Origin: an uncultured Eubacteriales bacterium
Lineage (GTDB): Bacteria; Bacillota; Clostridia; Oscillospirales; Oscillospiraceae
Length of the DNA stretch: 55,791 nt
Assembly (NCBI GenBank): GCA_900317385.1
Contig: ONGN01000001.1
Coordinates: forward strand, 1-55,791
Direction of reading: 5' to 3'
Shown: in pieces, positions 10,775 to 50,887 of the stretch
Numbering within the stretch: the first letter of the stretch is position 1
Layout of the letters: every line of letters begins with the position of its first letter
Program-made: the position numbers and the translations under genes
The notes under the pieces: model-generated
Database searches by the model: none
Told to the model about the DNA's origin: nothing
Seen by the model: only the letters and a program-made list of their open reading frames with translations

Positions 10775-10803
10775 ATAATACAATGTAGTCTGCAGGAATT
10801 CAA
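10775..10803 (-). promoter_or_regulatory. Candidate rpiR promoter abutting the terminator stem
   Basis: The - strand reads TTGAAT (10798-10803), a 17-nt spacer, then TATTAT (10775-10780). The predicted start site falls inside the left arm of the terminator hairpin. Confidence 0.4.
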
Positions 10804-10809
10804 GCTATT

Positions 10810-10840
10810 TTTGCAATTTTTCTTTCACAAAAATTGCAAA
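10810..10840. repeat. Perfect 12-bp AT-rich inverted repeat (TTTGCAATTTTT / AAAAATTGCAAA) with a 7-nt spacer
   Basis: Read directly: arms 10810-10821 and 10829-10840. It lies between the rluB stop and the rpiR promoter and is a candidate operator or hairpin. Confidence 0.6.
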
Positions 10841-10843
10841 TTA

Positions 10844-35639: not shown

Positions 35640-36848
35640 TTATTTCAGCACCACGTTAAAATAGTTCTTTTTTCCCCTTCTGAGGAGGACTCCGGCTCTG
35701 AGCTCTTCTTCGGTAAACGCCTTGTCTATATCGGTCACCTTCTCATCGTTCGCGGTGACTCCGCCCTGCTGGACGTTGCGCCTTGCGTCGCCGCGGGAGG
35801 TGCAGAGCCCGGTCTTAACGAGAAGTGAGAGAAGGTCGCGGGCGTCGTCGGCGCCGATCTCAACGGTGGGCGCGCTGGAGGCGCTGCCGCCGGAGAAGAG
35901 AGCCCTTGCGGAATCCTGGGCCTTCTGCGCCTCCTCCTCGCCGTGTACGAGCTTCGTAAGCTCGAAGGCAAGTATCTCTTTGGCGCGGTTAAGCTCGCTG
36001 CCCTCCCAGCTCTCCATCGTCTTGATCTCCTCGAGCGGAAGGAAGGTCAGCATCTTTATGCACTTCATAACGTCGGCGTCGCCCACGTTCCGCCAGTACT
36101 GGTAGAAGTCGAATGGGCTCGTCTTGTTCGGATCGAGCCATACTGCGTTGCCCGCCGTCTTGCCCATCTTGTTGCCGTTTGAGTCGGTGAGCAGGGTTAT
36201 AGTCATCGCGTGGGCATCCTTGCCGAGCTTCTTGCGGATGAGCTCGGTGCCGCCGAGCATATTCGACCACTGATCGTCGCCGCCGAACTGCATATTGCAG
36301 CCCTCGTGCTGGAAAAGATAGTAGAAGTCGTAGGACTGCATTATCATATAGTTGAACTCGAAGAAGGAAAGGCCCTTCTCCATGCGCTGCTTATAGCACT
36401 CAGCGCGGAGCATATTGTTGACGGAGAAGCAGGCGCCGACCTCGCGCAGAAGGTTTACGTAATTCAGATCAAGGAGCCAGTCCGCGTTGTTGACCATCTT
36501 CGCCTTGCCGGGTCCGAACTCGATGAACTTCTCCATCTGACGGCGGAAGCACTCCGCGTTGTGGTCGATATCCTCGCGGGTGAGCATCTTGCGCATATCG
36601 CTGCGTCCGCTTGGGTCGCCGATCATGGTCGTGCCGCCGCCGATAAGGGCGATGGGCTTATTGCCCGCCTGCTGAAGTCTCTTCATCAGGGTGAGCGCCA
36701 TGAAATGCCCGGCGGTGAGGCTGTCCGCGGTGCAGTCGAAGCCTATATAAAAGGTCGCCTTTCCGGAGTTGACCATCGACCTGATCTCCTCCTCGTTCGT
36801 GACCTGAGCGATAAGTCCTCTTTCCACAAGTTCTTCATAAATGCCCAT
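35640..36848 (-). CDS. tyrS: Tyrosine--tRNA ligase
   Basis: 402 aa, class I, with a HIGH-region variant (TAGHFMAL), KMGKT (KMSKS) and a C-terminal S4-like domain. Confidence 0.97.
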   Translation of the reverse strand: MGIYEELVERGLIAQVTNEEEIRSMVNSGKATFYIGFDCTADSLTAGHFMALTLMKRLQQAGNKPIALIGGGTTMIGDPSGRSDMRKMLTREDIDHNAECFRRQMEKFIEFGPGKAKMVNNADWLLDLNYVNLLREVGACFSVNNMLRAECYKQRMEKGLSFFEFNYMIMQSYDFYYLFQHEGCNMQFGGDDQWSNMLGGTELIRKKLGKDAHAMTITLLTDSNGNKMGKTAGNAVWLDPNKTSPFDFYQYWRNVGDADVMKCIKMLTFLPLEEIKTMESWEGSELNRAKEILAFELTKLVHGEEEAQKAQDSARALFSGGSASSAPTVEIGADDARDLLSLLVKTGLCTSRGDARRNVQQGGVTANDEKVTDIDKAFTEEELRAGVLLRRGKKNYFNVVLK

Positions 36849-37242: not shown

Positions 37243-38967
37243 ATGAAACGCGCGGCATCGTTTTTACTCTGTCTGGCTCTTCTCCTTACTCTATTTCCCG
37301 CAGCGGCGTTTGCCGCCGGGGAAACGTCCGGGTCGAAGCTCATCGCTCTCACCTTTGACGACGGCCCCTCTGCTTATACCGAGGAGCTGCTTGACGGGCT
37401 TAAGGCCAGAGGCGCGAGAGTCACCTTCTTCTGCGTGGGCTTCAACATCGTAAAAAGGCCGGAGACAGTTAAGCGGGCTTGGACGGAGGGGCACCAGATA
37501 GCTAATCACACCTGGAATCACCCCGAGCTCACGAGCATAACGAGCGACGCCGTTAAAAGCCAGATATCAAGAGTGGAGGACGCTCTTGACGAGGCTGTCG
37601 GCTTTCACCTCAGCTACATATTCCGCCCGCCCTACGGGTCTTACAGCCAGCGCGTGCTTTCTGCGGCGAACGTACCCGGCATTTACTGGTCGATGAACAC
37701 GGCGGACTACCTTACGAGCAAGGCGGACGTCGTATGCAGTCAGATTGTTAAAGCAGCCCGCGACGGGGCTATCGGCTGCCTGCACGACACGCATTATTCC
37801 ACGGTGAAGGGCGCCCTTATGGCGATAGACAAGCTTCAGAAAGAGGGCTATGAATTCGTTACGATAAACGAGCTCTTTTACCGCAAGGGCCTTACGCTTG
37901 AAAACGCCACGATCTATAAGAACGCTTACAAGGGCAGCGATACCGCCCCCGCGCTCAAGGCGCCTGAGATAACGAGCGTTGAGGACCCCGCGACCGGAAA
38001 GCAGAAGATAACCATCTCCGGCGACGAGCGCGGAAGCGTATATTACACTACCGACGGCTCAGTCCCCTCCCCGATAAACGGAAGGCTTTACACCGGAGCC
38101 TTTATGCTCTCCTCCGACGCCGCCGTCAGAGCTGTCAGCGTCGTAAACTGGAACGGGTTGCGCTCCTATACCTCGGAGCTTAAAGTCGAGGTGACGCCCC
38201 GCGCCGACCTCTTCTCCGCGCCCGACGGCTCAAGGCTCGTGCTGAGCTCGTCGGCTCAGGGGGCAAAGATATACTTCACCGACGACGGGAGTAAGCCGGA
38301 TAGCGAAAGCACTCTGTACGTCTCTCCCATCGAGGGCGTTCCCGGAACGACGTATTCCGCTGTCGCCACGGCGGATAGAATGCGCGACAGCGCCACAGAG
38401 GCGATTACTTATTCGGACAGCGGCTTCTGGATGCGGGACGTGAAACCCGGCGACTGGTACTACGGTGTTATCGACGAAGCCGCTTTCCTCGGAATACTGA
38501 ACGGAACGGGGAACTTCCGCTATCAGCCCGGAAAAAGCACGACTCGCGCCATGGCAATAACTATGCTCTACCGCCTTGCCTCACCGGCTGAGGACTTTGA
38601 GCGCATCGCGCCCGACGACGTCGCCGAAGGAAAATACTATTACGACGCCGTCTCATGGGCTTACTCCGCCGGAATCGAGGACGGAATTGAAAACGGCTTC
38701 CGTCCCAATGAGGATATCACGAAGGAGGAGCTTGCCGTGATGCTCGCAAGGCTTCTCGGCGCTGAAGAGGGCGCGGATACCTCCCTTCTCGCCGAGCATC
38801 CCGATGGAGGCGAGGTCTCTGAATGGGCAGAGCGCGGAGTTGCCGCCTGCCTTGAGCTCGGTATCCTGAGGGGCAACTCCTCCGGAAAGCTCAAGCCGCA
38901 AAAGGGCGCATCCCGCGCGGAAACGGCGGCAATGCTCTTAAGAGCGGCGGAGATAATGAAGGGTTGA
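37243..38967 (+). CDS. Polysaccharide deacetylase (NodB domain) with two chitobiase-C-like modules and a C-terminal SLH anchor
   Basis: Signal peptide, then NodB motifs TFDDGP and HTWNH. Two repeats follow of the type VYYTTDGSVPSP... / KIYFTDDGSKPDS.... Three SLH modules close the protein (TTRAMAITMLYRLA, ITKEELAVMLARLL, ASRAETAAMLLRAAE). Confidence 0.85.
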   Translation: MKRAASFLLCLALLLTLFPAAAFAAGETSGSKLIALTFDDGPSAYTEELLDGLKARGARVTFFCVGFNIVKRPETVKRAWTEGHQIANHTWNHPELTSITSDAVKSQISRVEDALDEAVGFHLSYIFRPPYGSYSQRVLSAANVPGIYWSMNTADYLTSKADVVCSQIVKAARDGAIGCLHDTHYSTVKGALMAIDKLQKEGYEFVTINELFYRKGLTLENATIYKNAYKGSDTAPALKAPEITSVEDPATGKQKITISGDERGSVYYTTDGSVPSPINGRLYTGAFMLSSDAAVRAVSVVNWNGLRSYTSELKVEVTPRADLFSAPDGSRLVLSSSAQGAKIYFTDDGSKPDSESTLYVSPIEGVPGTTYSAVATADRMRDSATEAITYSDSGFWMRDVKPGDWYYGVIDEAAFLGILNGTGNFRYQPGKSTTRAMAITMLYRLASPAEDFERIAPDDVAEGKYYYDAVSWAYSAGIEDGIENGFRPNEDITKEELAVMLARLLGAEEGADTSLLAEHPDGGEVSEWAERGVAACLELGILRGNSSGKLKPQKGASRAETAAMLLRAAEIMKG

Positions 38968-38983
38968 ACTGAATAGCGTAATC

Positions 38984-39022
38984 AAAAAAGTGCTGACGGA
39001 TTTGATGCCGTCAGCACTTTTT
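38984..39022. terminator. Bidirectional terminator between the convergent deacetylase gene and recN
   Basis: 11-bp stem AGTGCTGACGG / CCGTCAGCACT (38989-38999 / 39008-39018) with A-run and T-run flanks. The right arm overlaps the last recN codons. Confidence 0.7.
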
Positions 39023-40699
39023 GTTTTCTTTTTTCCACTTTTCCGCCGCGTCAAGCTGCTCTTCGGCGGCTTTCAGTGTGGTTTCCGTTATTACGTCGCC
39101 GCCCGTAAGTCTCGCGAGCTCAAGCTTTCTGCCCTCGCCGTCAAGCCGCTCCACGCGGGTGTACGTTCTGCCCTCGTTGAGCTCCTTGGAAATCGAGAAG
39201 TGTACGTCCGCCATTGAGGCGATCTGGGGAAGGTGGGTCACGCAGATGACCTGCTTTTTCGCGGCTATGCCGGCAAGCTTTTCGGCGACTCTTCTCGCGG
39301 CTATGCCGGAAACGCCCGTATCAATCTCGTCGAACACCATTGCGTCAACGGGGTCGTTCTCGCTCAGGACGCTCTTCATCGCGAGCATAACGCGGCTTAG
39401 CTCGCCGCCTGAGGCGACCTTGGAAATGCGTCCCGGCGCCTCGCCCGCGTTCGCGCTCATCATAAAGCGCACCTCGTCCCTGCCGTATGGCCCGAGCTCC
39501 CCGCCCGCGCCGAGGCTTACGAAGAATACCGCTCCCTTCATCGAGAGAGCCTGAAGCTCGGCCTCGATCCTATCCGCAAGAGCCTCGCCGACTTTTTTCC
39601 GCTTTTCGGTGAGCGCGGCGGCAAGAGCCTCAGCCTTTTTTCTGAGCTTCTCCGTCTCCGCCTCAAGCTCCTCGCGCCTTGCGTCGGAGTTTTCAATGGT
39701 TTTTAGCTCTTCCTTCGCGTTCTCGAGGAATTCGAGAGCCGCCTCCTCCGAGCCGCCGTACTTTCTCAAGATCCTTTTCAGGGTATCGAGCCTGTCGTCA
39801 AGCTCGTCGAGCTCCTCGGGTGAAAAGTCGAGCCCGTCCTTCATATCGCGCAGCTCGTAGGCCGCGTCCTCGCAGGAAAATTTCAGGTCTCTGAGCTTAT
39901 CTCTCAGGGCTGAAAACCCGTCCGAATATTTAAGCGCGTACTCTACCCCGCCGAGCGCCGCCTCGATAAGGCTCAGAGCTCCGTCGCTCCGCTCCCCGCC
40001 GAGCATGGCGGCGGCGGCGTCCGATATCGCGGCGGTTAGCTTTCCGGAGTTTTTGAGGAGCGTTCTTCTCGCGCTCTTCTCATCAAATTCCCCCGGCTTT
40101 AAATCCGCGCGCTCGAGCTCGTTTATCTGATAGGTCAGCATATCGAGCCTTCTCGCCTTCTCCGCCTCGTCCACGTTGAGCTCCTCAAGCTCGGATAGAG
40201 CCGCCCGGTATTTTGAGTATGCCCCGCGGTAAGCCTCGAGCTCTGCGGAAAGGCCCCCGAAGGCATCGAGGTATTCCCTGTGATATCTCTCGTCCGTCAG
40301 CCTCTGTCCGTCGCCCTGGCCGTGGATATCCATAAGCTGAAGGCCGAGCCTTCGCACCGAAGCAGCAGGAACTGGCACACCGTTCACGCGGCAGGTGGAC
40401 TTTCCGTCCTCCGTTATGCGGCGGGTGAGTATGACTTCCCCGTCCTCAGCCTCAATGTCAAGCTCGCGAAGAATTTCATCAAGCCCGTCTGCGGAGAAAG
40501 CGGCGGTGACTCTCGCGCTCTTGGCTCCCGTTCTGACGAGCTGAGCGCTCGTTCTCCAGCCGAGAGCGGCCTCGAGCGAATCTATAACGATGGATTTTCC
40601 CGCTCCGGTCTCGCCCGTCAGCACGTTGAGTCCCTCGGAAAACTCGATCTCCGCCTTTTCGATAACGGCAATATTTTCAATATTCAGCGTGCGGAGCAT
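39011..40699 (-). CDS. recN: DNA repair protein RecN
   Basis: 562 aa with Walker A GETGAGKS, a long coiled coil and the signature SGGELSR. Confidence 0.95.
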   Translation of the reverse strand: MLRTLNIENIAVIEKAEIEFSEGLNVLTGETGAGKSIVIDSLEAALGWRTSAQLVRTGAKSARVTAAFSADGLDEILRELDIEAEDGEVILTRRITEDGKSTCRVNGVPVPAASVRRLGLQLMDIHGQGDGQRLTDERYHREYLDAFGGLSAELEAYRGAYSKYRAALSELEELNVDEAEKARRLDMLTYQINELERADLKPGEFDEKSARRTLLKNSGKLTAAISDAAAAMLGGERSDGALSLIEAALGGVEYALKYSDGFSALRDKLRDLKFSCEDAAYELRDMKDGLDFSPEELDELDDRLDTLKRILRKYGGSEEAALEFLENAKEELKTIENSDARREELEAETEKLRKKAEALAAALTEKRKKVGEALADRIEAELQALSMKGAVFFVSLGAGGELGPYGRDEVRFMMSANAGEAPGRISKVASGGELSRVMLAMKSVLSENDPVDAMVFDEIDTGVSGIAARRVAEKLAGIAAKKQVICVTHLPQIASMADVHFSISKELNEGRTYTRVERLDGEGRKLELARLTGGDVITETTLKAAEEQLDAAEKWKKENKKC

Positions 40700-40727: not shown

Positions 40728-41177
40728 TTACATATTCTCCTCTATCATACGGCAGAGCTTTTTCGCGCTCTCCCTCGACATCATTGCGATAAACGCCGTA
40801 TCGTCGCCCGCTATCGTCCCGGCCATATCCTCGATATCCATCTTGTCTATGGCGCTGCAGGCGGCGGAGGCAAGGCCGGGCAGGGTTTTTATAACGACGA
40901 TGTTCTCCGCGCAGACGCAGCTCGTCAGGCTTTCTCTGAATATCGTGCGGAGCTTTTCGCTGTTGTTCGGCACGTCCGCAACGGGCGACGCGTAACGGTA
41001 GGAACCCGAGCCCGTGAGCTCCTTATACAGCCTCAGCTCCTTGATATCCCTTGACACCGTGGCCTGAGTGCTCTTTACACCGCGCTCGTTCAGCTCCCTG
41101 ATAAGGTCGAACTGAGTCTCTATATCCTTCTGGGCGATAATATCAAGTATCGCCCTCTGTCTTATTTCTTTGATCAT
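40728..41177 (-). CDS. argR: Arginine repressor
   Basis: 149 aa with a winged-helix N-terminus (TQATVSRDIKEL) and the C-terminal oligomerisation motif GTIAGDDT. Confidence 0.93.
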   Translation of the reverse strand: MIKEIRQRAILDIIAQKDIETQFDLIRELNERGVKSTQATVSRDIKELRLYKELTGSGSYRYASPVADVPNNSEKLRTIFRESLTSCVCAENIVVIKTLPGLASAACSAIDKMDIEDMAGTIAGDDTAFIAMMSRESAKKLCRMIEENM

Positions 41178-41992
41178 CGTCTTTCTCCCAGCTTTTCACT
41201 TACTCTTTCGTAGAAGCTCTTATCGGTAAGCCTGATGAGCCTCACGACCCGCTCCGAACGGGAAACCGTAATTTTATCTCCGCTCTCGAGCCGAAGCGGC
41301 TCGGAGCCGTCGGTCGAAACGTAGGCGATCTTTCTTTTGAGCTCGCCAATCTCGGCGGTGACCACCCTCGACGCGTTCAGCACGTAGGCCTTCGCCCACA
41401 GGGCGTGAGGGCAGATCGGAGTTACGAGTATGCACTCGCCGTCCGGCTCGACGAGGGGCCCGCCCGCAGATAACGAGTATGCCGTAGACCCCGTAGGCGT
41501 GGCGAATATTATACCGTCGCCCGAAAAGTCGAGCATCCTGCGCCCGTCGCCGAATACGGAGATCGTTATAACTCTCGCCATTCCGGCAACTGTCACGTCG
41601 TTTAAGGCGCAGTCTGAAAAGACCGTCTCACCGTTTCTTGAAACCGAGACGTCGAGCATCATCCGCTTTTCGATCGCGAATTCGCCCGCGACCATTTTTT
41701 CGATAAGGTCGAGTCCGTCCTTCTCAAGCTCAGCCATAAAGCCCTTGTTCCCCAGGTTTATTCCGAGGATAGGCACGGAGTACTGGGAAGCGGCTCTCGC
41801 GGCGTGAAGTATCGTCCCGTCGCCGCCGAAGGTAACGACAGCCTCCGCCCCCCTAAGCACCTCACCTGAGAGCTCGTCGAGGTGGCAGACGGCCGGAGAT
41901 ACTCCGAGCCCGTGGAGCAGGCTTTTGACCTTGCCCGTGACCGCAAGTCCCGGGTCTCTTTTCTCATTCGGGCACAAAACAACGTTCTTCAT
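41174..41992 (-). CDS. nadK: NAD+ kinase
   Basis: GGDGT motif, the NLGNKGF (NxGxxGF) context and PTGSTAYSLSAGGP. Confidence 0.93.
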   Translation of the reverse strand: MKNVVLCPNEKRDPGLAVTGKVKSLLHGLGVSPAVCHLDELSGEVLRGAEAVVTFGGDGTILHAARAASQYSVPILGINLGNKGFMAELEKDGLDLIEKMVAGEFAIEKRMMLDVSVSRNGETVFSDCALNDVTVAGMARVITISVFGDGRRMLDFSGDGIIFATPTGSTAYSLSAGGPLVEPDGECILVTPICPHALWAKAYVLNASRVVTAEIGELKRKIAYVSTDGSEPLRLESGDKITVSRSERVVRLIRLTDKSFYERVSEKLGERR

Positions 41993-42792
41993 ACCGTTTT
42001 CAACCTCTCGTGCGCCTCGTTTACAACGGCTTCGATATCTATTTCCTCAGAGCTTTTCCCATCGAGCTTAAGGTGAGCCAGAAACTCGATGTTGCCCTCC
42101 GGCCCCTTTATGGGCGACCAGGTCACGCCCTTAACCGAGAAGCCGGAGCTCTCCGCGTTTTTTATAAACGCTCTTATGACCTCGATATGCGTCTCACTCT
42201 CCCGAACGACGCCCTTTTTTCCGACCTTCTCGCGCCCGGCCTCAAACTGCGGCTTTATGAGCGAATAGACGTCCGCGTCCGGCGTCAGCACGGTTGAGAG
42301 GGCGGGGAAAATAAGCGCGGTGGAAATAAAAGAGACGTCTATCGTGCCGAGCGACGGTGCCTCGGGGAACATATCGGGGGTTATATATCTGACGTTCGTG
42401 CGCTCCATAACGGTGACTCTCTCGTCGTTTCTGAGGCTCCAGGCAAGCTGCCCGTACCCCACGTCGACGGAGTAAACGCGGCGCGCGCCGCGCTGGAGCA
42501 TAACGTCGGTAAACCCGCCCGTTGACGCGCCGCAGTCTATGCACACTCTGCCGGAGGGATCTCCCGAGAAGAAGTCGAGCGCCCGCTCGAGCTTGAGCCC
42601 GCCGCGGCTCACGTATTTCAGCGTTCCGCCCCGCACTTCAATGGAGGCGTCCTCATCGAACGAGGCTCCGGCCTTGTCCGCCCTCTGCCCGTTTACGAAT
42701 ACCTCGCCGGACATAATAACGGCCTTCGCCCTCTCCCTTGAGTCGAAAAAGCCCTTTTCGGTCAGCAAAACGTCAAGCCTTTTTTTCGTCAT
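41989..42792 (-). CDS. tlyA: TlyA-family rRNA (cytidine-2'-O)-methyltransferase
   Basis: S4 domain (RLDVLLTEKGFFDSRERAKAVIMSG) plus an FtsJ-type SAM site GASTGGFTD. The ORF opens at 42861, but ATG 42792 has AGAGG upstream. It overlaps the dxs stop by 20 nt. Confidence 0.9.
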   Translation of the reverse strand: MTKKRLDVLLTEKGFFDSRERAKAVIMSGEVFVNGQRADKAGASFDEDASIEVRGGTLKYVSRGGLKLERALDFFSGDPSGRVCIDCGASTGGFTDVMLQRGARRVYSVDVGYGQLAWSLRNDERVTVMERTNVRYITPDMFPEAPSLGTIDVSFISTALIFPALSTVLTPDADVYSLIKPQFEAGREKVGKKGVVRESETHIEVIRAFIKNAESSGFSVKGVTWSPIKGPEGNIEFLAHLKLDGKSSEEIDIEAVVNEAHERLKTV

Positions 42793-44659
42793 CTTTACCT
42801 CTGTTCTTGACCCTGTCGGGCAGGGAATCGTAAATATCCTTCTCAATGCTCCCCGCGTCAAGGCGGTACTCCTCGCGCAGGCGCTTAAGCGCCCCGTGAG
42901 TTACGTAGTTATCGCCGAGGTTGCGGAGAATAAGCATTCTCGGGCTCATGCTCGCCTCGGTAAGCCTCGCGGCCAGCTCCATACCGACGCAGCCGGGGAA
43001 GACGCACTCCTCCACGACCATAAGCCTGCCCGTCTTCCTTACGGAAGAGAACACGGCGTCAAAATCTATCGGCTTTATCGTTCCGAGCTTCAGAACGTCA
43101 GCCGTTATGCCCTTCTCCCTCAGCGCGTCCGCGGCGGCGAGCACGTCGTTCACCGTCTCCCCGTAGGTCACGATGGTGAAATCCTCGCCCTCGCGGAGAA
43201 GCCTTGAGGCGTCAGTGCCTCCGTCCTTATAAGCGCCCTCTCCGCCCCTCGGATAGCGGACGGCAACTGGGCCGCGCATCTCGTTTACGGCGTGGGAGAG
43301 CATATCGCGGAGCTCCTGAAAGCTCGCGGGGGAATAGACCGTCATACCCGGAACGCTGCGAAGATAGCTCACGTCAAAGATGCCCTGATGCGTCTTGCCG
43401 TCCTCGCCGACGATCCCTGCTCTGTCCACGGCTAAAACCACGTGCTCGCCGAGTATGCCGATATCGTGCAGGAGCATATCGTAGCCCCTCTGCATAAAGG
43501 TCGAGTAGATGGCGACGACGGGAGTTTCGCCCTGCTGCGCCATTCCCGCCGCCATGCTGAGAGCGTGCTCCTCGCAAATCCCCACGTCGTAAAACCTCGA
43601 CGGGTATTTCTTTGAAAACTCAACGAGGCCGGTGCCGGGAGTCATCGCCGCCGTTATCGCGCAAAGCTTTTTGTTATTCTCCCCCAGCTTTACCATCTCT
43701 TCGCCGAACACCGACGAGAACGAGGGATCATTGTCCTCCTTGACCCCTGTGGCCGGGTCGAACTTGCCGACGCCGTGATAGAGATAGGGATTTTCCTCAG
43801 CCTTCTGATAGCCCTTGCCCTTCTTCGTAATGGCGTGGACGACCGTGGGACAGCCGAGGTCGCGCGCAAGCTCGAGAACGTTCACAAGCTCGGGTATATC
43901 GTGTCCGTCGACCGGACCGAGGTAGGTGAAGCCCAGATCCTCGAACATCTCGCATTTCAGTATCCTGCGCTTCAGCGATTCCTTCAGCTTATGGTTGAAG
44001 CGGTACACGAACTTGCCGCCCGGCAGGACGTTCATCACCTTGCGGTAGAATTTTTTGAATTTTCTGTATCCCCTTCTCAGGCGGAGGCGGCTTAGGTACT
44101 TTGCCATACCGCCCACGTTTCTGTCGATGCTTATACCGTTGTCGTTTAAGATAACGATGAGCGGCTCGCGGCTCACTCCGGCGTCGCACAGGCCCTCGTA
44201 GCTGAGACCGCCCGTCATAGCCCCGTCGCCGACGAGGGCGATAACGGAATAGTTTTCCCCGTCCATCGTTCTCGCTCTCGCCATACCGAGAGCTTCGGAT
44301 ACGGCCGCCGAAGCGTGACCCGCTATAAAAGCGTCGTGTACGCTCTCTGATGGCTTCGGAAAGCCGGAAAGCCCACCGTACTGCCGCAGGGTATCGAAGT
44401 CCCCGCGCCTTCCGGTGAGCAGCTTATGGGTATAGCTCTGATGTCCGACGTCGAAGACAAGTCTGTCTCTCGATGTGTCGAACACCCTGTGTATCGCTAT
44501 CGTGAGCTCCACCGCGCCGAGATTTGCCGACAGGTGGCCGCCCGTTTTGGAGACCGCTTTTACTAAGTATTCCCTCAGCTCGGCGGCTAACTTTTCAAGC
44601 TCCTCCTCCGGCAGGTCCTTAACGTCCCAGGGGGAGCGGATATTGTCAAGTAGACTCAT
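42773..44659 (-). CDS. dxs: 1-deoxy-D-xylulose-5-phosphate synthase
   Basis: 628 aa with GHQSYTHK, the TPP motif GDGAMTGG and a transketolase-like C-terminus. Confidence 0.97.
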   Translation of the reverse strand: MSLLDNIRSPWDVKDLPEEELEKLAAELREYLVKAVSKTGGHLSANLGAVELTIAIHRVFDTSRDRLVFDVGHQSYTHKLLTGRRGDFDTLRQYGGLSGFPKPSESVHDAFIAGHASAAVSEALGMARARTMDGENYSVIALVGDGAMTGGLSYEGLCDAGVSREPLIVILNDNGISIDRNVGGMAKYLSRLRLRRGYRKFKKFYRKVMNVLPGGKFVYRFNHKLKESLKRRILKCEMFEDLGFTYLGPVDGHDIPELVNVLELARDLGCPTVVHAITKKGKGYQKAEENPYLYHGVGKFDPATGVKEDNDPSFSSVFGEEMVKLGENNKKLCAITAAMTPGTGLVEFSKKYPSRFYDVGICEEHALSMAAGMAQQGETPVVAIYSTFMQRGYDMLLHDIGILGEHVVLAVDRAGIVGEDGKTHQGIFDVSYLRSVPGMTVYSPASFQELRDMLSHAVNEMRGPVAVRYPRGGEGAYKDGGTDASRLLREGEDFTIVTYGETVNDVLAAADALREKGITADVLKLGTIKPIDFDAVFSSVRKTGRLMVVEECVFPGCVGMELAARLTEASMSPRMLILRNLGDNYVTHGALKRLREEYRLDAGSIEKDIYDSLPDRVKNRGKDDEKKA

Positions 44660-45225
44660 TTTTCGACCTTGTTTCTGTTTTTTCTGTTATTTCCGGACTT
44701 TGCCGGATGAAAGACCGAGATGATCTTTCCCGCGATTAGAACGATTTTGGTATCCGAATTAATCGCCGCGGTTTTGCCCAGCGCCTTGCCGCCGATCGTA
44801 AGCCCGGCTACGAGCCCCGTCACGGCGAGCTGGGTGAGCACGCCGGAAACGGTCAGATCGCGCGTCAGGTTCCCGGCAATTACCGCAGCGGTCGCGCCCG
44901 AGACTATGCCCGATATATCGCCCACTACATCGTTGCAGATGCTTGAGACCTTCTCCGAGCTTTTCACGAGGTTTAATGCCTCGCGGGCGCCCTTCTCCTT
45001 ATGCGAAGCCATCGAATGAAACGGCGCCTCCCTCGCGCTCGTCACGGCGACCCCAAGCATATCGAAAACGATGCCGAGGAGGATGAAGACGGCGAGCAGG
45101 AGAAACGCGATAATATACCCCGCCCCGTCAAGTATCTCGGACGAGACGAGGGAAAAGGTCATCGAGGTCACGATGCTTATAATGGTTATCGAGATTATCC
45201 AGCGGAAATTCGTTTTATGCTTCAT
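44656..45225 (-). CDS. oapA: Four-TM membrane protein in the OLE-associated protein A position
   Basis: 189 aa with four predicted TM segments, an in-membrane NDVVGD (DxxxD) motif and a basic C-terminal tail KSGNNRKNRNKVEK. It lies directly downstream of the large structured RNA and overlaps the dxs start (ATGA). Assignment rests on context plus topology. Confidence 0.7.
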   Translation of the reverse strand: MKHKTNFRWIISITIISIVTSMTFSLVSSEILDGAGYIIAFLLLAVFILLGIVFDMLGVAVTSAREAPFHSMASHKEKGAREALNLVKSSEKVSSICNDVVGDISGIVSGATAAVIAGNLTRDLTVSGVLTQLAVTGLVAGLTIGGKALGKTAAINSDTKIVLIAGKIISVFHPAKSGNNRKNRNKVEK

Positions 45226-45239
45226 ATTTACCCTTCTGA

Positions 45240-45909
45240 ATAAAAAAGAGGAGGCACGGAAAGTAAATCTTACGGCTTAGGTCGGGCTGGATTTCCCCTC
45301 AGGCTGCCCCTCGTTGCCGATGAGGCGGTTTCCCTTTAAAGCCTGATCCGCCGCGTTGCCGACGGCGTTGCCCGATTGCCACTTAGTCCGCACTGCAATC
45401 CTTTCCGTGCCCGTCCGGTTATACGGACGACAGCCTAGGTGTTTTCCACGGCGAAACGAGCCATCTCTTTAGCCTCTTTTGCAGGAAATATTTCAGGGGG
45501 ATATCGCCCGGTTCCCTGGCCGGGGAAACGGGCGCGTGGCTCTCCCATCCGCAGATCCCACTCAAGGCAGGCTACGCTGCACACAGCACTCGGTAAAAAA
45601 AATGCCTTTGTAACGCACCGCATTGCAGGTTCATCCCCGGTCCGTAAAAGGATCGATTACCGCTAAGGGAGTACGTCCTTCCACAGAGTCGGGTCTCCAC
45701 ACCCACTGGGTCGGGGTCCCAATGCCATTCGGGGCCGCCCAATAAGATGCAGGCTAAGCCGGGGCTCCGGCTAAGACCTCCCTCCAGCACCCACCCGGAA
45801 CTGGGCGTTCCAAGCAGACACAAGAGGCTTCATAGATATGCCCTTTAAAGGATTTTTAGGCCCTTCCTTGGAGATGGCAGCTTCGACTAAGGATACTGCT
45901 CCGTCGTGA
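45240..45909 (-). ncRNA. ole: OLE (ornate, large, extremophilic) RNA candidate
   Basis: A ~670-nt non-coding stretch between ispA and the oapA-like gene; the only ORF-track entries here are short, overlapping and RBS-less.
- Hairpins read from the sequence: 45412-45429 (6 bp), 45506-45533 (11 bp, 1 mismatch), 45754-45775.
- Three CGGCAACG / CGGGCAACG GNRA-type hairpins at 45312-45374.
- An 11-bp long-range helix pairs GGCACGGAAAG (45401-45411) with CUUUCCGUGCC (45253-45263).
- The ends are approximate. Confidence 0.75.
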
Positions 45910-45915
45910 ATATTC

Positions 45916-45944
45916 ATTATATACAATCTTTATTCATTTTTCAA
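45916..45944 (-). promoter_or_regulatory. Near-consensus sigma-A promoter immediately upstream of the OLE RNA
   Basis: The - strand reads TTGAAA (45939-45944, overlapping the ispA TGA stop), a 17-nt spacer, then TATAAT (45916-45921). Confidence 0.5.
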
Positions 45945-46831
45945 GAGCTTCTTTTTGCAAGCTCGTCCGCAAGCTCGAAAAGGAACGCGGCGTCACCCGC
46001 CCAGCTCGCTTTTCCAAGAGCAGCCTTCGCCCTTTCCGTGTATTCTCTCACGAGCTCGGCGCACTTTTCCGCGCCGAGGATGGACATATAGGTCGCCTTG
46101 CCGTTCGCAAGGTCGCTGCCGACAGGCTTTCCGAGCTCTGAATCGGTGCTCATGGCGTCGAGCATATCGTCCTTTATCTGAAAAGCTCGGCCGAGATTGA
46201 GAGCGTACTCCTCCGCCGCCGAAACGCAGTCTAAGCCGACGGGTCTGTTTCCCTTAGACGCGAGCACGCCGAGGACGCAGGCGGCCCTTAAAAGAGCCCC
46301 GGTCTTTAAATCGTTTATCCGGAGCAGGATCTCCGCCGTCCTCTCAGATTCGGGAATAGTGGTATCCCCGTACTGGCCGAGACACATACCGTGCTCGCCG
46401 GCCGCCTCGGCAAAATAGCGCAGAGCCTCAAGTCCTGCCTCCGGCCTCGAAAACATAAGTCCCGCCTCGGCGGCTGTTCTGAACGCTGCCGACTGAAGGG
46501 CGTCGCCCGCCAGAATTGCCGTACACTCGCCGAAAACCTTGTGGTTCGTCGGCTTTCCGCGCCTTAGATCGTCGTTATCCATCGCGGGAAGATCGTCGTG
46601 GATGAGCGAATAAGTGTGCAGCATCTCGATGGCGCAGCCGAGGCGAAGAGCCTCCTCCGCCCTGCCGCCCGCTGCCTCGCAGAATTTTATCGTAAGCACG
46701 GGGCGCACCCTTTTGCCGCCGGCGAGAAGGCTGTATCGCATAGCCTCCTCAAGGCCCTGCCGGGTAAACTCCCTTTCAAGAGCCTCCTGGGCGAGGGCTC
46801 TCGCCCCGTCGTATTCATCTCTGAAGCTCAT
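45941..46831 (-). CDS. ispA: Farnesyl/geranylgeranyl diphosphate synthase (polyprenyl synthetase)
   Basis: 296 aa with the first Asp-rich motif LIHDDLPAMDNDDLRRG and the second, QIKDDMLD. Confidence 0.93.
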   Translation of the reverse strand: MSFRDEYDGARALAQEALEREFTRQGLEEAMRYSLLAGGKRVRPVLTIKFCEAAGGRAEEALRLGCAIEMLHTYSLIHDDLPAMDNDDLRRGKPTNHKVFGECTAILAGDALQSAAFRTAAEAGLMFSRPEAGLEALRYFAEAAGEHGMCLGQYGDTTIPESERTAEILLRINDLKTGALLRAACVLGVLASKGNRPVGLDCVSAAEEYALNLGRAFQIKDDMLDAMSTDSELGKPVGSDLANGKATYMSILGAEKCAELVREYTERAKAALGKASWAGDAAFLFELADELAKRSS

Positions 46832-46832: not shown

Positions 46833-47072
46833 TCATTCTATCGTATCGAAGGGAAGCTCGACGGGCTCTCCGTCCTCGCCCTTTTGGAGCTTTACTACCC
46901 TCTGCTCGGCCTCATTAAGAAGAGTGCCGCAGCTTTTTATAAGCGAGGTGCCCTCCTCGAAAAGCGAAAGTGCCTCCTCGAGCGGCCTGTCGCCCTTCTC
47001 AAGGGCGCGGACTATCTCCTCTATTCTCGCCATCTGCTGCTCAAAACCTTGATTGTTTTTCTTTTCAGCCAT
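46833..47072 (-). CDS. xseB: Exodeoxyribonuclease VII small subunit
   Basis: 79 aa. FEQQMARIEEIVRALEKGDRPLEEALSLFEEG is typical. Confidence 0.92.
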   Translation of the reverse strand: MAEKKNNQGFEQQMARIEEIVRALEKGDRPLEEALSLFEEGTSLIKSCGTLLNEAEQRVVKLQKGEDGEPVELPFDTIE

Positions 47073-47082: not shown

Positions 47083-48273
47083 TCACTTTACAATGCAGTC
47101 TATCGTATCGTCCCTGAGCTTTACCAGTATATCGTCGCCGCTTTTTACGTCGCTCGCCGTTCTTATGACCTTGCCGTCAGCCTTAGCGGCGATCGCATAT
47201 CCTCTTCCCAAAACCTTGAGCGGGCTCATGGCGTCGAGCTTTCCGGCAAACTCCGCGTATTTTCTCCGCTCTGAGTGGAGCATCGAGGACGCGGCGGCGG
47301 CGAGCCGCGTTTTAAGATGGTCTATCCGCAGTCTTCTGTCCTCAACGAGGTTTTTCGGATCCTGCAGCACCCGCTTTTCCTCAAGCGATTTAAGCCTCGA
47401 CTTCATGGAGGCAAGCTGATTTGCGACGGCGGCAAAGCTTCGCATCCCGGCTGAATCGAGGTATTCCATAAGCTCCGAGGCGTCCGGCGCGCAGAGCTCG
47501 GCCCCGTTCGACGGGGTCGCCGCTCTGAGATCGGCGACGAAATCCGAGATGGTAACGTCCGGCTCGTGCCCTACGGCGGATATTACCGGAGTATTGCAGT
47601 CGTATATCGCGCGGGCGACTCTCTCATCGTTAAAGCACCATAGGTCCTCCATGCTGCCGCCGCCGCGGCCTACGATGAGCACGTCGGCGATATTATGGCG
47701 GTCGGCGTATCTTATAGCCCCGGCTATCTCGGGCGGGGCTTCCACGCCCTGGACTCTCACGGGCAGAAGAAGTATCTTCGCGACAGGCCAGCGCTTTCTC
47801 AAGACCCTGATTATATCGTGGACGGCGGCTCCTGCCGAGCTTGTGACCACGCCTACGCGCATCGGGTAGCGCGGTATCGGCTTCTTATGCTTCTTATCGA
47901 AAAGCCCCTCCTTCAGGAGCTTTTCCTTCAGCTGCTCAAAGGCGATAGCAAGGTCGCCGACCCCGTCCGGCGTGAGCGAGGTTGCGTAGAGCTGGTAGGC
48001 TCCGTCCCTCGTATAAACGGCGACTCTGCCCGTGCAGATGACCTTCATCCCGCTCTCGGGGCGGAACCTGAGCCCGGAGGCCGAGCCACGGAACATCACG
48101 CAGCGGATCGCGCTCTCCTCGTCCTTTATGGAAAAGTAGTGATGCCCCGAGGGGTAGACCTTATAGTTTGAGAGCTCGCCGCGAACGGCGACGTTTGAAA
48201 GAAACCTGTCGGACTCCACGAGGCCCTTTACGTATTCATTAAGCTGGGTAACGGAGAGTATTTTATCATCCAT
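47083..48273 (-). CDS. xseA: Exodeoxyribonuclease VII large subunit
   Basis: 396 aa with an OB-fold N-terminus (VRGELSNYKVYPSGHHYFSIKD) and a catalytic core with RGGGS.EDL. Confidence 0.95.
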   Translation of the reverse strand: MDDKILSVTQLNEYVKGLVESDRFLSNVAVRGELSNYKVYPSGHHYFSIKDEESAIRCVMFRGSASGLRFRPESGMKVICTGRVAVYTRDGAYQLYATSLTPDGVGDLAIAFEQLKEKLLKEGLFDKKHKKPIPRYPMRVGVVTSSAGAAVHDIIRVLRKRWPVAKILLLPVRVQGVEAPPEIAGAIRYADRHNIADVLIVGRGGGSMEDLWCFNDERVARAIYDCNTPVISAVGHEPDVTISDFVADLRAATPSNGAELCAPDASELMEYLDSAGMRSFAAVANQLASMKSRLKSLEEKRVLQDPKNLVEDRRLRIDHLKTRLAAAASSMLHSERRKYAEFAGKLDAMSPLKVLGRGYAIAAKADGKVIRTASDVKSGDDILVKLRDDTIDCIVK

Positions 48274-49180
48274 TTTCCGCTATGCTCCTGTAGGTAAGAA
48301 TAGCCGTTCCCATGGCGTTGTCGGTTGAAAATCTCGGCTCGGCAAATATCCCCTCCGGCGTCAGCTCGCGCAGAAGCGAGTTTGAAGCGACGCCGCCGGA
48401 GAAAAGGACGGGCAAGTCCCCGTAGACCTTCTTGGCGTTCTCGGTAACCCTGCCTACCGTCCATATCATCGAGGCAAGGGTGAAGTAAGCCGCGTTCTCC
48501 TTCGAGGCGCCGGAATCAATGAGGGCGTGCATCTTGTGCTCAACGCCCGAAAGGGAAAAATGCGTTCCGTTTATCTTCGGCTTATACAGATCTTTTACGT
48601 TTGCGGCTTTGGAGAGGGCGTCGAGCTCGCGCCCCGACGGGAACTGAAGGCCGAGAGCCTGACCCGCCCTGTCAATGAGCTGCCCCGCGGAAACGTCATC
48701 CGTCCCGCCGATTATCTCGCATCTTACCGCCACTCCCTCCGGGCGGACGTAAAGCAGCTCGGTAGTGCCGCCGGAGAGGTGCCAGGCAAGGTGCTCTCTC
48801 TCCAACAGGTCCAGTCGCCCCGCGGACCATGCCGCCGCCGCGATATGACCCTGCTGATGGGAGAAGCCGAAGTACGGCACTCCGAGCGCAAAAGCCGCGG
48901 TCTTTGCCGAGCATACCCCCGCGAGGAAGCAGGGCATATAGCTGTCCTCCGTCTCTCTCGGCTTTTCGGATGCTCCCACGGCGGCTATATCGCCGATTTC
49001 TCCGAGGGCGGCTATTATGTCCGGAAGGCGCTTAACGTGAGAAAAGAGCGCCTCAGACTGGCGAAGGCCCAGTTCCCCGAGCTTTACGTCCAACAGGCGC
49101 CCTGAATTTTCTCCCTTATTGCCATCGAACCATGCCGCCGAGGTGGTGTAGTTGGAAGTATCGAAGGCTAAGGCTTTCAC
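48266..49180 (-). CDS. Divergent Kae1/TsaD-like (peptidase M22 family) protein
   Basis: 304 aa. Family-like blocks SHQQGHI (HxxGH), SGGTTELL, GQLIDRAGQALGLQFPSG, GGVASNSLLR and STDNAMG, but clearly divergent from canonical TsaD. It overlaps both xseA and nusB. Confidence 0.7.
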   Translation of the reverse strand: MKALAFDTSNYTTSAAWFDGNKGENSGRLLDVKLGELGLRQSEALFSHVKRLPDIIAALGEIGDIAAVGASEKPRETEDSYMPCFLAGVCSAKTAAFALGVPYFGFSHQQGHIAAAAWSAGRLDLLEREHLAWHLSGGTTELLYVRPEGVAVRCEIIGGTDDVSAGQLIDRAGQALGLQFPSGRELDALSKAANVKDLYKPKINGTHFSLSGVEHKMHALIDSGASKENAAYFTLASMIWTVGRVTENAKKVYGDLPVLFSGGVASNSLLRELTPEGIFAEPRFSTDNAMGTAILTYRSIAENG

Positions 49181-49629
49181 AGTCCCTCAAGCTCCTCTCT
49201 GACGAAGGAACCGAGGATCCCGTTTATGAAAGCGACGGTCTCCGGCACGTCGTATTTCTTCGCTATCTCGACCGCCTCGTTGATCGAGGCTCCGTTCGGT
49301 ATCTCAGGCATATACATCGTCTCGAACATAGAGACCTTCATTACCGCGAGGGCGGTGCGGGAAATTCTCCCGAAGCTCCAGCCCTTTGAGTATTTGGCGA
49401 CGTAGCCGTCGAGCTCCGCGTTATGCGCGCCGACGCCCCTTATCACCGTTTCGATGTAGTCCTTCTGATCGCCGTCCGGGTATTCCGAAAAGAGGCTGTC
49501 CTCCTCCCTGAGCGAGTCGTAATGCTCCCTGTCAAAGAAGTTTTCAAGCACTTCCTCGGCGGTGCATTCCCGCGCGGAGATCTCGAAGGCGAGCCTTACT
49601 GCTATCTCTCTTGCCGTTGAGCGGTTCAT
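49177..49629 (-). CDS. nusB: Transcription antitermination factor NusB
   Basis: 150 aa with the RSTAREIAVRLAFE N-terminus and the family-typical EAVEIAKKY...FINGILG. Confidence 0.93.
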   Translation of the reverse strand: MNRSTAREIAVRLAFEISARECTAEEVLENFFDREHYDSLREEDSLFSEYPDGDQKDYIETVIRGVGAHNAELDGYVAKYSKGWSFGRISRTALAVMKVSMFETMYMPEIPNGASINEAVEIAKKYDVPETVAFINGILGSFVREELEGL

Positions 49630-49642: not shown

Positions 49643-49993
49643 TTAAAGCTGAACGCCGAGTATCTGGACGTTTACCTCGCTCACCTTCGCGCCGGTAACG
49701 CCCTCGAGAGCGGACTTGACAGCGTCCTGCACGGCGGTGCCGACCTTGTGAACGGCGGTGTTTCTCTTCACCATTATGCCGAGCTCAACGGCAACGTCCT
49801 CGCCGTTGTTTATAACGCGGACGCCGCGTGAAGCGGGCTTCTTGCCCCAGATCTCGCCGTTGTCGCGGCCGAGAGAGGCTACGCCGTCGACGTCCCTTGC
49901 GGCGTTTGCCGCGACAGTGGCGATAACGTCCTCCGAGATATTGATATTGCCCTTGTCGCCGGGCAGTGTGAAGTATTCCTTGTTGTCAGCCAT
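49643..49993 (-). CDS. Asp23/Gls24-family envelope stress protein
   Basis: ISEDVIATVAANAARDVDGVASL and the C-terminal VNVQILGV are typical. The ORF opens at 50041, but ATG 49993 (MADNKEY) has GGAG upstream. Confidence 0.88.
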   Translation of the reverse strand: MADNKEYFTLPGDKGNINISEDVIATVAANAARDVDGVASLGRDNGEIWGKKPASRGVRVINNGEDVAVELGIMVKRNTAVHKVGTAVQDAVKSALEGVTGAKVSEVNVQILGVQL

Positions 49994-50052
49994 TTTTATC
50001 ACTCCATACGATATTTTTTTGAAAAATCCACAAACTTCCACTATTGAGAAGT

Positions 50053-50148: not shown

Positions 50149-50886
50149 TCAGTATTCAACTACGCTTGCCCAGCTTAAGAGGAATTCCCGCTCCTCGGGG
50201 TTTCCCTTTACCGACTGGGAGGCGGCGACGATCGGCATCCACTTCTGAACGTAGGGCTTTGCGGTATGGCTCTTGAAGCAGAATTTATCGAGATACTTTT
50301 CCGCAAGGTCGAACTTCTCCGCAAGATAGAACAGAAGATAGGTCCTCGCGGCGTCGGCGGAGGCGTTGCCCTGGGTGGCGTGGCTCCAGTCGATGATAAA
50401 CATCTCTCCGTCCGGCCTGACGATGATATTCGACGGGTTGAAATCGCCGTGGCAGAGCTTCGCGTGGGTGGGAAGCCCGTTTAAGCGCATCTCAAGGTCG
50501 TATCTCGTGGTGTCGTCGAGATCGGCCTCCTTCAGCTTTCGCGCCATCTTGTCCTTGAGCTTTCCGAGGCTCGGGCATCTCTCCGCGTGCATTTTAAGCT
50601 GGAGGTCGATAAAGTCGTTCAGGTACTCATCCAGCTTATCGGGGTTCTCCTCCATGAGCTGAGCGAGGGTCTTGCCCTCAATGAAATCGTACTCTATCGC
50701 CCAGCGCCCGTCGATCGTGGTAACTCCGCGAAGGCGGGGGATGTTCAGGCCCGTCTCCTCTACCCTCGCCTGATTAAGGGCCTCGTTCAGGATATCGGCC
50801 TTGGAAAAGCTCGCGTCAAAGGTCTTGATGCAGCGGTCTCCGTCGCGGTAAACTGTCTTTCTCGGTCTCTCTGCGATAATAACCAT
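50149..50886 (-). CDS. Aminoglycoside/choline-kinase-like phosphotransferase family protein
   Basis: 245 aa with HGDFNPSNIIV (HxDxxxxN catalytic loop) and IIDWSHA. It starts 1 nt after the adhE stop. Confidence 0.75.
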   Translation of the reverse strand: MVIIAERPRKTVYRDGDRCIKTFDASFSKADILNEALNQARVEETGLNIPRLRGVTTIDGRWAIEYDFIEGKTLAQLMEENPDKLDEYLNDFIDLQLKMHAERCPSLGKLKDKMARKLKEADLDDTTRYDLEMRLNGLPTHAKLCHGDFNPSNIIVRPDGEMFIIDWSHATQGNASADAARTYLLFYLAEKFDLAEKYLDKFCFKSHTAKPYVQKWMPIVAASQSVKGNPEEREFLLSWASVVEY

Positions 50887-50887
50887 T

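Follow-up and report, generated by a model that had tools for sequence, protein, structure and literature searches.

Gene content of the locus

The window analysed here is a stretch of 55,791 nucleotides from the genome of an uncultured bacterium. It contains a series of genes in the order Asp23/yqhY-like gene, nusB, TsaD-like open reading frame (ORF), xseA, xseB, ispA, an RNA gene, the gene for a 189-aa protein, dxs, tlyA, nadK, argR and recN. A preliminary description of this DNA had listed the same order from nusB to recN except for the TsaD-like ORF of 304 aa (48266-49180) between nusB and xseA, which it had missed. As described there, no credible ORF is found in the 715 bp (45226-45940) between the end of ispA at 45941 and the start of the 189-aa ORF at 45225, where only ORFs of 51-83 aa occur, and the remaining intergenic distances between recN and the Asp23 gene are -89 to +28 bp. 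We found that this gap holds a full-length OLE RNA, and that the gene after it encodes OapA, the membrane partner of the RNA. The locus contains the following features:

42773..44659, minus strand: dxs (TIGR00204, 672 bits), directly downstream of oapA with a 4-nt overlap
44656..45225, minus strand: oapA, encoding a four-helix membrane protein of 189 aa with a DxxxD motif; it starts 6 nt past the end of the Rfam match, and its stop codon overlaps the dxs start (ATGA)
45232..45920, minus strand: OLE RNA gene (RF01071), 689 nt as matched by Rfam
45916..45944, minus strand: sigma-70-type promoter-like site, TTGAAA-17-TATAAT, matching 11 of 12 consensus positions and overlapping the ispA stop codon
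45941..46831, minus strand: ispA, farnesyl diphosphate synthase (NF045485, 288.8 bits, and PF00348), directly upstream of OLE

To place the locus among its relatives, synteny was measured directly in related loci that we fetched. The ispA/dxs context of OLE RNA, as given in the preliminary description, was reproduced in these loci. In a profile search, 74 of 80 genome loci had an OLE RNA directly upstream of the oapA homologue; with Rfam, 17 homologue loci were tested and each gave a full-length OLE RNA at this position. The gene dxs lies downstream of oapA in every OLE locus (74/74), with the order OLE-oapA-dxs-tlyA kept. Upstream of OLE, we observed xseB-ispA in about half of the 74 loci and ispA in about 40. 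No hidden or reduced OLE RNA was detected in the remaining six of the 80 homologue loci (nhmmer at E <= 10; Rfam at the gathering score; Rfam at E <= 1 on locus L071).

The closest loci come from rumen and gut MAGs of Oscillospiraceae/Ruminococcaceae and from Sporobacter. The window also encodes the sporulation protein YtfJ and proteins with SLH domains and, judging from its sequence, the host would belong to Bacillota. A Pfam scan of the ~57 ORFs of the window revealed no oapB, oapC or mpfA (no KOW/YbzG, L7Ae or CNNM+CBS protein). These genes are normally unlinked to ole, thus their absence from the window says little. Another apparent gene-free gap of 911 bp (9933-10843) was rejected as an artefact of greedy ORF picking, as it is filled by an ORF for a 312-aa RpiR/SIS regulator (9865-10803); an Rfam scan of this region gave nothing credible.

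The gap between ispA and oapA is a full-length OLE RNA

The preliminary description had predicted an OLE RNA in the gap and had proposed a covariance-model search as a check. With the Rfam OLE model (RF01071), we obtained 426.9 bits compared to a gathering score of 50; the strand and the coordinates of the match are those that had been predicted. The match covers positions 1-616 of the 616 in the model, and its E-value of 4.6e-122 excludes chance. No model position is missing from the RNA in the RF01071 alignment, and the RNA agrees with the consensus at 214 of its 249 highly conserved positions (86%). The RNA is longer than the consensus (689 nt compared to 616 positions) and includes two loop expansions relative to the model, at 45655-45668 and 45591-45613.

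When comparing the RNA to the OLE RNAs of Halalkalibacterium halodurans and Clostridium species, we find that, in addition to the full-length model match, the same long-range and local helices are present. The conserved single-stranded blocks of the family, CCUAAAAAUCC, GUAGCCUGCCUUGAG, CUGCAAAAGAGGCUA, GGAUUGCAGUGCGGACUAAGUGGCAAUC and UUUAAAGGGAAACC, are conserved here too, and the location is alike, with oapA on the 3' side and ispA and dxs as flanking genes. The RNA is of the 'full-length' type, with P7-P9 and an OapB-type site at P13. Nothing in our analysis contradicted the identification of the OLE RNA or of OapA. We are highly confident in reading the locus as a canonical ole-oapA module, carried by an uncultured bacterium of the Oscillospiraceae/Ruminococcaceae type (Bacillota).

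Covariation supports the RNA structure

We aligned the RNA of the window with 17 related OLE RNAs and predicted the structure of these 18 sequences independently with RNAalifold. The predicted structure contains 160 pairs in 26 helices over 600-700 nt. Compensatory changes were observed in 92 of the 160 pairs, and none of 500 shuffles reached the observed covariation values. Furthermore, 95.7% of the cells in the alignment that should pair do so, compared to 38-45% in slid controls. A structure supported by covariation is thus present, and the RNA adopts the multi-domain architecture that is conserved in OLE; the absence of such a structure, together with no significant hit to the OLE model, had been named beforehand as an outcome that would speak against an OLE RNA. 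Specific elements of the structure are:

45401..45411, minus strand: 5' arm of an 11-bp long-range helix, GGCACGGAAAG
45253..45263, minus strand: 3' arm of the same helix, CUUUCCGUGCC
45349..45367, minus strand: P13-type hairpin with a GCAA tetraloop, CGCCG-U-CG[GCAA]CG-CGGCG, with one bulged U two bp below the loop
45306..45326, minus strand: P14.1-type hairpin with a second GCAA tetraloop, whose stem covaries (helices 25-26)

The 11-bp long-range helix that had been noticed in the sequence of the window is real: GGCACGGAAAG pairs with CUUUCCGUGCC, and compensatory changes are found in relatives at 10 of its 11 pairs (helix 18). Three stems had been described as GNRA-capped. Two of them, the hairpins at 45349-45367 and 45306-45326, clearly carry GCAA tetraloops, whereas the third, at 45439-45449, has a GAAAA pentaloop. 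OapB recognises a GNRA hairpin with a bulge, a rule that is known from H. halodurans (PMC7936274). The hairpin at 45349-45367 has this published geometry and is thus a putative OapB site. The terminal helix of the RNA contains two mismatches, which affect its outermost pairs (alignment columns 16-18 with 816-818).

The 189-aa protein is OapA

Published OapA proteins have a DxxxD motif, four transmembrane helices and a weak similarity to CNNM without CBS or CorC domains, and they are encoded directly downstream of ole (PMC11332333). The 189-aa protein, which had been proposed to be OapA, shows each of these properties, and its size is also alike. We found no difference of kind between this protein and OapA, and it has 43-45% identity to the homologues that adjoin OLE RNA in Metabacillus and Halobacillus. 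An AlphaFold model (mean pLDDT 85.3) contains long helices at residues 7-34, 37-63, 90-124 and 128-156. The DxxxD motif, N98-D99-V-V-G-D103, is located in the third long helix of this model, consistent with the earlier placement of NDVVGD in the third transmembrane segment. Across 121 homologues, residues N98, D99, G102 and D103 do not vary. In the sequence alignment, a basic C-terminal tail rich in Lys/Arg is present in all 20 homologues aligned; it might correspond to the cytoplasmic cluster of basic residues that has been published for OapA as available for RNA binding.

OapA resembles the membrane domain of the Mg2+ transporters CNNM, CorB/CorC and MpfA (PF01595) in its predicted fold and by a weak profile match. 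The six best Foldseek matches in the PDB are all CorB/CorC membrane domains (7m1t, 7m1u, 7cff and 7cfg; probability 0.9-1.0), with modest TM-scores of 0.38-0.49. We rejected membership in the CNNM/CorC/MpfA family because the Pfam CNNM match (20.7 bits, E 3.6e-4) is below the cut-off of 28.4 bits, the protein is only 189 aa long and it has no further domains: neither a CBS pair nor CorC/HlyC nor any other Pfam domain was found. This agrees with the published observation that OapA scores below true CNNM proteins; CNNM domains lack the DxxxD motif (PMC11332333). OapA is thus a distant relative of CNNM/CorC/MpfA by fold but not a member of the family. An NCBIfam scan of the protein returned no family. 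A profile of the OapA alignment had a single match among PDB sequences, a potassium channel, which we attribute to chance (E 0.27); the link to CorB/CorC is visible only at the level of the fold.

Promoter and transcription

The promoter-like site at the end of ispA probably drives an OLE RNA of roughly 680 nt, with a predicted transcription start near 45909. The first ~10 nt of the stretch matched by Rfam would then probably belong to the promoter. In most related loci, a similar promoter is found ~8-19 nt upstream of the conserved GGNGCAGUAUCC. Between the OLE RNA and oapA, no terminator-like site was found, thus read-through transcription of oapA, dxs and tlyA is probable.

An extra hairpin replaces the P5/P6 linker

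When comparing the RNA of the window to the Rfam model, we detected an insertion at the junction between P5 and P6, which forms the OapC kink-turn in the model organism:

45751..45780, minus strand: clade-specific extra hairpin between P5 and P6, a 30-nt insertion relative to the Rfam model that replaces the conserved UUAA linker
45828..45837, minus strand: 5' strand of the published kink-turn region, AUC UAU GAAG, compared to the usual AUC GAU GAAG in the alignment

The GG that follows the UUAA linker is altered as well, as the base of P6 starts with GCAUC instead. The conserved UUAAGG is thus replaced by G, the hairpin and GCAUC. Among 63 full-length OLE RNAs examined, 34 are of this type (the window and 33 of 62 relatives). 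The carriers are rumen and gut Oscillospiraceae and Sporobacter, among them Sporobacter termitidis DSM 10068, and most of them are Oscillospiraceae-related MAGs. In every carrier, the insertion consists of a purine and then a stem closed by A-U; its length ranges from 14 to 64 nt, and the stem sequences vary among the loci.

In the published kink-turn that is bound by OapC (YbxF), the 3' half is UUAAGG, with the UUAA linker being part of the 3' strand. UUAAGG is absent from the RNA of the window, thus the protein composition of the complex may differ. The 5' kink-turn strand hardly varies among OLE RNAs that have the standard linker but is variable in those with the insertion. We drew standard kink-turns and three-way 'k-junctions' for the insertion-type junction by hand in several registers and rejected them, as none gave tandem G.A pairs beside a 3-nt bulge without breaking the covarying register of P5. 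OapC needs the kink-turn in H. halodurans. The protein is present in only about 45% of OLE-bearing species (PMC11332333), thus the kink-turn is not a defining element of the OLE family. We suggest tentatively, and with considerable doubt, that the RNAs with the extra hairpin form a structural subtype of OLE, perhaps an undescribed one, in which the J5/6 linker became a variable hairpin, the base of P6 was remodelled, the 3' strand of the OapC kink-turn was removed and its 5' strand became variable.

Two reduced OLE variants have been published, variant 1 from the TANB77 clade and variant 2 from the RF39 clade, which are likewise lineage-specific departures in gut-associated uncultured Bacillota (PMC11332333). 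These variants shorten or lose P7-P9 and the OapB site (PMC11332333), whereas the RNA of the window retains every position of the model as well as the OapB-type hairpin, and has gained a hairpin where P5 and P6 meet.

Alternative explanations of the gap

The promoter-like site upstream of the RNA, the missing terminator-like site before oapA and the distance of only 6 nt between the end of the Rfam match and the oapA start codon suggest that OLE RNA and oapA are probably co-transcribed. The same features would be expected if the gap were only a long cis-acting leader, a 5' UTR in the manner of a riboswitch through which oapA-dxs is regulated, and did not give rise to a stable RNA in a ribonucleoprotein particle. 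We consider such a leader very unlikely. Co-transcription is also compatible with later processing, and a conserved RNA of 600-700 nt with 26 helices is, to our knowledge, far larger than any known leader. Furthermore, the RNA belongs to the OLE family, whose members are published as abundant noncoding RNAs that localise to the membrane and bind OapA, OapB and OapC (PMC12265935, PMC9723947).

Having assigned the gap to an OLE RNA, we asked whether the gene could be decaying and no longer functional, given its three insertions relative to the Rfam consensus, the two mismatches at the outer end of the terminal helix and the loss of UUAAGG. However, the match is full length with 214 of 249 conserved positions kept, oapA is intact with invariant key residues and the promoter is close to the consensus. 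The positions that deviate from the consensus are concentrated at one remodelled junction, which is common to 33 relatives and accompanied by compensatory stem changes, which indicates selection rather than decay. A remnant is thus extremely improbable. Four ORFs overlap the gap, three on the minus strand (62, 83 and 51 aa) and one of 75 aa on the plus strand, which might encode small proteins. These ORFs are, however, no longer than expected in ~700 bp at 56% G+C. Indels among the relatives are not multiples of three, and the substitutions follow base-pair compensation, which leaves practically no room for a coding function on either strand.

Possible function and significance

For RNA-protein binding, membrane localisation and the physiological role, we rely on the model in the literature (PMC12265935, PMC11332333, PMC7936274, PMC9723947), which stems from H. 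halodurans, a Bacillaceae alkaliphile and thus a distant relative. By analogy, OapA dimers would bind the OLE RNA and hold it at the membrane. The RNA may stand in for the regulatory functions of the protein domains that OapA is missing compared to MpfA. The OLE-OapA complex might thereby adjust the handling of divalent cations and the tolerance to stresses, among them alcohols, cold, excess Mg2+ and poor carbon sources.

Among bacterial noncoding RNAs without an assigned biochemical function, OLE RNA is one of the largest and best conserved, thus each correctly annotated locus is useful. In this window, the locus is left blank by protein-centred pipelines. It is a further example of an already known system, and on its own it adds little because OLE RNA has already been reported in ~2,800 genomes, with the same gene context (PMC11332333). 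Its added value is modest and comparative, and lies in the OapC kink-turn junction that is rebuilt around an extra hairpin in a clade of rumen and gut Oscillospiraceae. If these RNAs do form a subtype, the hairpin clade would build its OLE particle without OapC, or the junction would be recognised in another way, and a comparison of both junction subtypes would show the purpose of the kink-turn switch.

A few relatives keep oapA-dxs without an OLE RNA nearby. Together with the hairpin-type junction, such loci serve as natural experiments that may show which of its parts the particle can do without.

An OLE RNA and its protein partner in the isoprenoid gene train

The minus-strand genes from recN to an Asp23-family gene are tightly packed, with junctions ranging from overlaps to +28 bp. 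Between the start of the 189-aa ORF (44656-45225, -) and the stop of ispA (45941-46831, -) lies a 715-bp stretch that contains only ORFs of 51-83 aa, so that the preliminary description was correct in reporting an ORF-poor gap. The neighbouring genes that it listed were all named by Pfam and NCBIfam; its list had left off a TsaD/Kae1-like ORF.

Gene train around the gap (named by Pfam and NCBIfam unless stated)
49643-50041, -, Asp23/yqhY-like gene, heads the train
49177-49629, -, nusB
48266-49180, -, TsaD/Kae1-like ORF of 304 aa between nusB and xseA (Pfam TsaD, 69 bits)
47083-48273, -, xseA
46833-47072, -, xseB
45941-46831, -, ispA
45226-45940, -, gap (OLE region)
44656-45225, -, 189-aa protein (oapA)
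42773-44659, -, dxs
41989-42861, -, tlyA
41174-41992, -, nadK
40728-41177, -, argR
39011-40699, -, recN

One of the commonest neighbours of ole in the literature is yqhY (PMC12265935). The 304-aa ORF scores far under every NCBIfam TsaD/Kae1 cut-off and may be a divergent paralogue.

Scanning the whole window with Rfam 15 at gathering thresholds resulted in two matches. One is OLE RNA (RF01071) at 45232-45920 (-), which reaches 426.9 bits (threshold 50, E 4.6e-122). The match is untruncated, spanning model positions 1-616 of 616. Of the 249 consensus positions given as capitals by Rfam, 214 have the identical base in the window RNA. The covariance model thus bears out the proposal that the gap encodes OLE RNA. 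The 11-bp long-range helix noticed previously also proved to be the model's 11-pair helix, in which GGCACGGAAAG (45401-45411) pairs with CUUUCCGUGCC (45253-45263).

To analyse the structure, we retrieved 80 genome loci that encode a homologue of the 189-aa protein and took 17 OLE RNAs from them, with hosts as far apart as rumen Oscillospiraceae, Metabacillus and Halobacillus. These were aligned to the RNA of the window, and pairs were predicted by RNAalifold without the Rfam structure. The 18 sequences yielded 160 pairs in 26 helices, and for 92 of these pairs both sides have changed with pairing kept in at least one sequence; in the 11-bp helix (helix 18), 10 of 11 pairs covary. Standard pairs fill 95.7% of the cells, compared to 81.3% after shuffling and 37.6-45.1% when partners are slid by 1-3 columns, and the covariation score is 0.460 compared to 0.082-0.112 for slid partners. 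None of 500 shuffles attained any of the observed pairing or covariation measures. RNAalifold further pairs the 5' region with positions ~450-470 and with the 3' end; these long-range helices are unpaired in the Rfam model but present in published OLE models.

The 189-aa protein had been described as OapA-like, and our results agree: its translation contains CNDVVGD, and the NDVVGD (DxxxD) motif lies in the third of four long helices (7-34, 37-63, 90-124 and 128-156) of an AlphaFold model (mean pLDDT 85.3, pTM 0.75). A search of a large protein collection found 3,305 relatives, nearly all of 175-200 aa and either unnamed or labelled 'DUF21' or 'CorB', the closest being from Oscillospiraceae. 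Two alignments, one of 20 and one of 121 sequences, show no variation at N98, D99, G102 or D103 and a Lys/Arg-rich C-terminus in every sequence. The NCBIfam scan of the protein gave no match, and the Pfam CNNM membrane domain (PF01595) remained sub-threshold (20.7 bits, cut-off 28.4, E 3.6e-4). When the model was compared with the PDB by Foldseek, the top six matches were without exception membrane domains, from archaeal CorB (7m1t, 7m1u) and bacterial CorC (7cff, 7cfg), with probabilities of 0.9-1.0 and TM-scores of 0.38-0.49. The protein thus shares the fold of the CNNM/CorC family but lies outside the family proper, because it scores under the Pfam cut-off and lacks both CBS and CorC domains. 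It fits the published description of OapA, which has a DxxxD motif not found in CNNM domains, CNNM HMM scores that cluster just under those of genuine MpfA proteins, and its best structural match in CorB (7M1U) (PMC11332333).

Linkage and predicted transcription of ole and oapA

In each of the 17 homologue loci that we scanned with Rfam, the gene is immediately preceded on its own strand by a full-length OLE RNA (392-505 bits). Using a DNA profile built from the OLE alignment, we detected OLE upstream of the OapA homologue in 74 of 80 loci; several partial matches are cut by contig ends. In tblastn searches with the window proteins, dxs is downstream of oapA in 74/74 OLE loci, followed by tlyA except in a few where the contig ends first, and xseB-ispA is upstream in about 40. 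The window locus has this canonical ole-oapA architecture, and the identification of OLE RNA and OapA is supported.

Six OapA-like genes (L056, L069, L071, L072, L073, L075) have no OLE RNA within ~4 kb by nhmmer and Rfam. According to the published view, OapA without OLE is rare. All six keep the CNDVVGD motif, and five (L056, L071-L075) share a Lys-rich N-terminal extension. In L056, L071, L073 and L075 the gene is still directly upstream of dxs-tlyA; in L071, for instance (OapA-like gene 3863-4519, dxs 4559-6463), the gene's own terminator and promoter occupy the place where ole would be.

A promoter-like site, TTGAAA-17-TATAAT (11/12 matches; 45944-45916, -), overlaps the ispA stop. As the only such site in the 2 kb scanned, where 1.1 are expected by chance, it is weak evidence taken alone. 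However, most related loci have a comparable -35/-10 pair ~8-19 nt upstream of a conserved GGNGCAGUAUCC block, nearly identical in L002, L003 and L016 to that of the window, and a dedicated ole promoter is thus likely. The predicted transcript start would likely lie near 45909, so that the Rfam match would begin with ~10 nt of promoter. No terminator-like site was found between the RNA and oapA in the 2-kb signal scan. The oapA ATG, preceded by GAAGGG, is 6 nt beyond the Rfam match; at the far end of the gene, its stop and the start of dxs overlap in ATGA. The simplest reading is that RNA and oapA would be co-transcribed and then processed.

The ole-oapA system is already known, and the window adds one more case, from an Oscillospiraceae-type organism of the rumen or gut that is uncultured; among the genome loci, RUG11115 is the nearest (90% OapA identity). 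As a putative mechanism we adopt by homology the model with the best support, which was developed in H. halodurans (PMC12265935, PMC11332333). OLE RNA would be bound cooperatively by OapA dimers and brought by them to the membrane. OapA is distantly related to the CNNM domain of MpfA, an Mg2+ exporter whose gene anticorrelates with ole across Bacillota, and OLE RNA would do the job of MpfA's CBS and CorC domains. H. halodurans that has lost the complex is sensitive to ethanol and cold, to excess Mg2+ and to poor carbon sources (PMC12265935, PMC11332333).

A hairpin at the P5/P6 junction

H. halodurans OapB needs the P13 GNRA tetraloop and a single bulged nucleotide two pairs below it (PMC7936274). 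The window hairpin CGCCG-U-CG[GCAA]CG-CGGCG (45349-45367, -) has the same geometry and is a candidate OapB site; a second GCAA hairpin lies at 45306-45326 (-).

Among the defining RNA and protein features that we tested, only the OapC kink-turn was not found in the window RNA. Mismatches to the conserved Rfam positions are tightly clustered only at the P5/P6 junction (138-145), with two further mismatches in the matching P6 strand (189-190). UUAAGG, the 3' half of the published kink-turn, is absent from this junction. The place of its conserved UUAA linker is taken by a G and a 29-nt hairpin with a closing A-U pair (together 45751-45780), and P6 starts with GCAUC instead of GG. The 5' kink-turn strand reads AUC UAU GAAG.

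Comparing 63 full-length OLE RNAs (62 loci and the window), we found the standard junction, with 42-nt spacing and UUAAGG, in 29, and an insertion in 34 (the window and 33 related loci, e.g. L006, L007, L013, L021, L029). Every insertion, 14-64 nt in length, folds into a single unpaired purine and then a hairpin with a closing A-U pair, and the stems differ in sequence with pairing kept (GGCGC/GCGCC, AGCGUG/CACGCU, GAUGGC/GCCAUC, AGUG/CACU). The carriers encode the OapA homologues closest to that of the window (Oscillospiraceae MAGs, Sporobacter, Papillibacter). The kink-turn is not universal among OLE RNAs. In standard-type RNAs its 5' strand is almost invariably AUCGAUGAAG. That of insertion-type RNAs varies (AUC/ACC/AGC/AAC, then UAU/GUU/UGC/UGU/UUU, then GAAG/GAAA), which suggests that the kink-turn constraint has been relaxed or remodelled in this clade. 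OapC is present in only ~45% of OLE-bearing species (PMC11332333); the junction variant is therefore compatible with family membership. The accessible OLE literature describes only the reduced variants 1 and 2 and does not mention this junction. A more novel, though less likely, reading is that the hairpin-junction subtype is an undescribed, OapC-independent form of OLE.

Two more loops are expanded relative to the Rfam consensus, at 45655-45668 and 45591-45613 (-), the latter with a run of eight U; their lengths vary among relatives too.

Other features of the window

The second Rfam match is a T-box leader (RF00230; 36891-37110, -; 106.4 bits, threshold 93) directly upstream of the tyrosyl-tRNA synthetase gene (35640-36848, -), an ordinary arrangement. 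Just upstream of the Asp23-nusB train, 50149-53506 (-) encodes an 872-aa AdhE-type bifunctional aldehyde/alcohol dehydrogenase together with an APH/RIO-like kinase. Published work links OLE to alcohol tolerance; the proximity of the AdhE-type gene may well be coincidence.

Other MEP isoprenoid genes lie ~36-42 kb from ole: ispF, ispD, and ispH (LytB) fused to S1 domains. They adjoin one long ORF that joins an HI0933-like flavoprotein and cytidylate kinase, whose TTG start was probably called too far upstream (group including this ORF: 3159-4399, 5890-7944 and 7941-9932, all -). Lastly, three SLH-domain proteins (4413-5825, -; 34333-35295, +; 37243-38967, +), one of which also has a polysaccharide deacetylase domain and another RHS repeats, suggest that the host has a cell envelope of the S-layer type.
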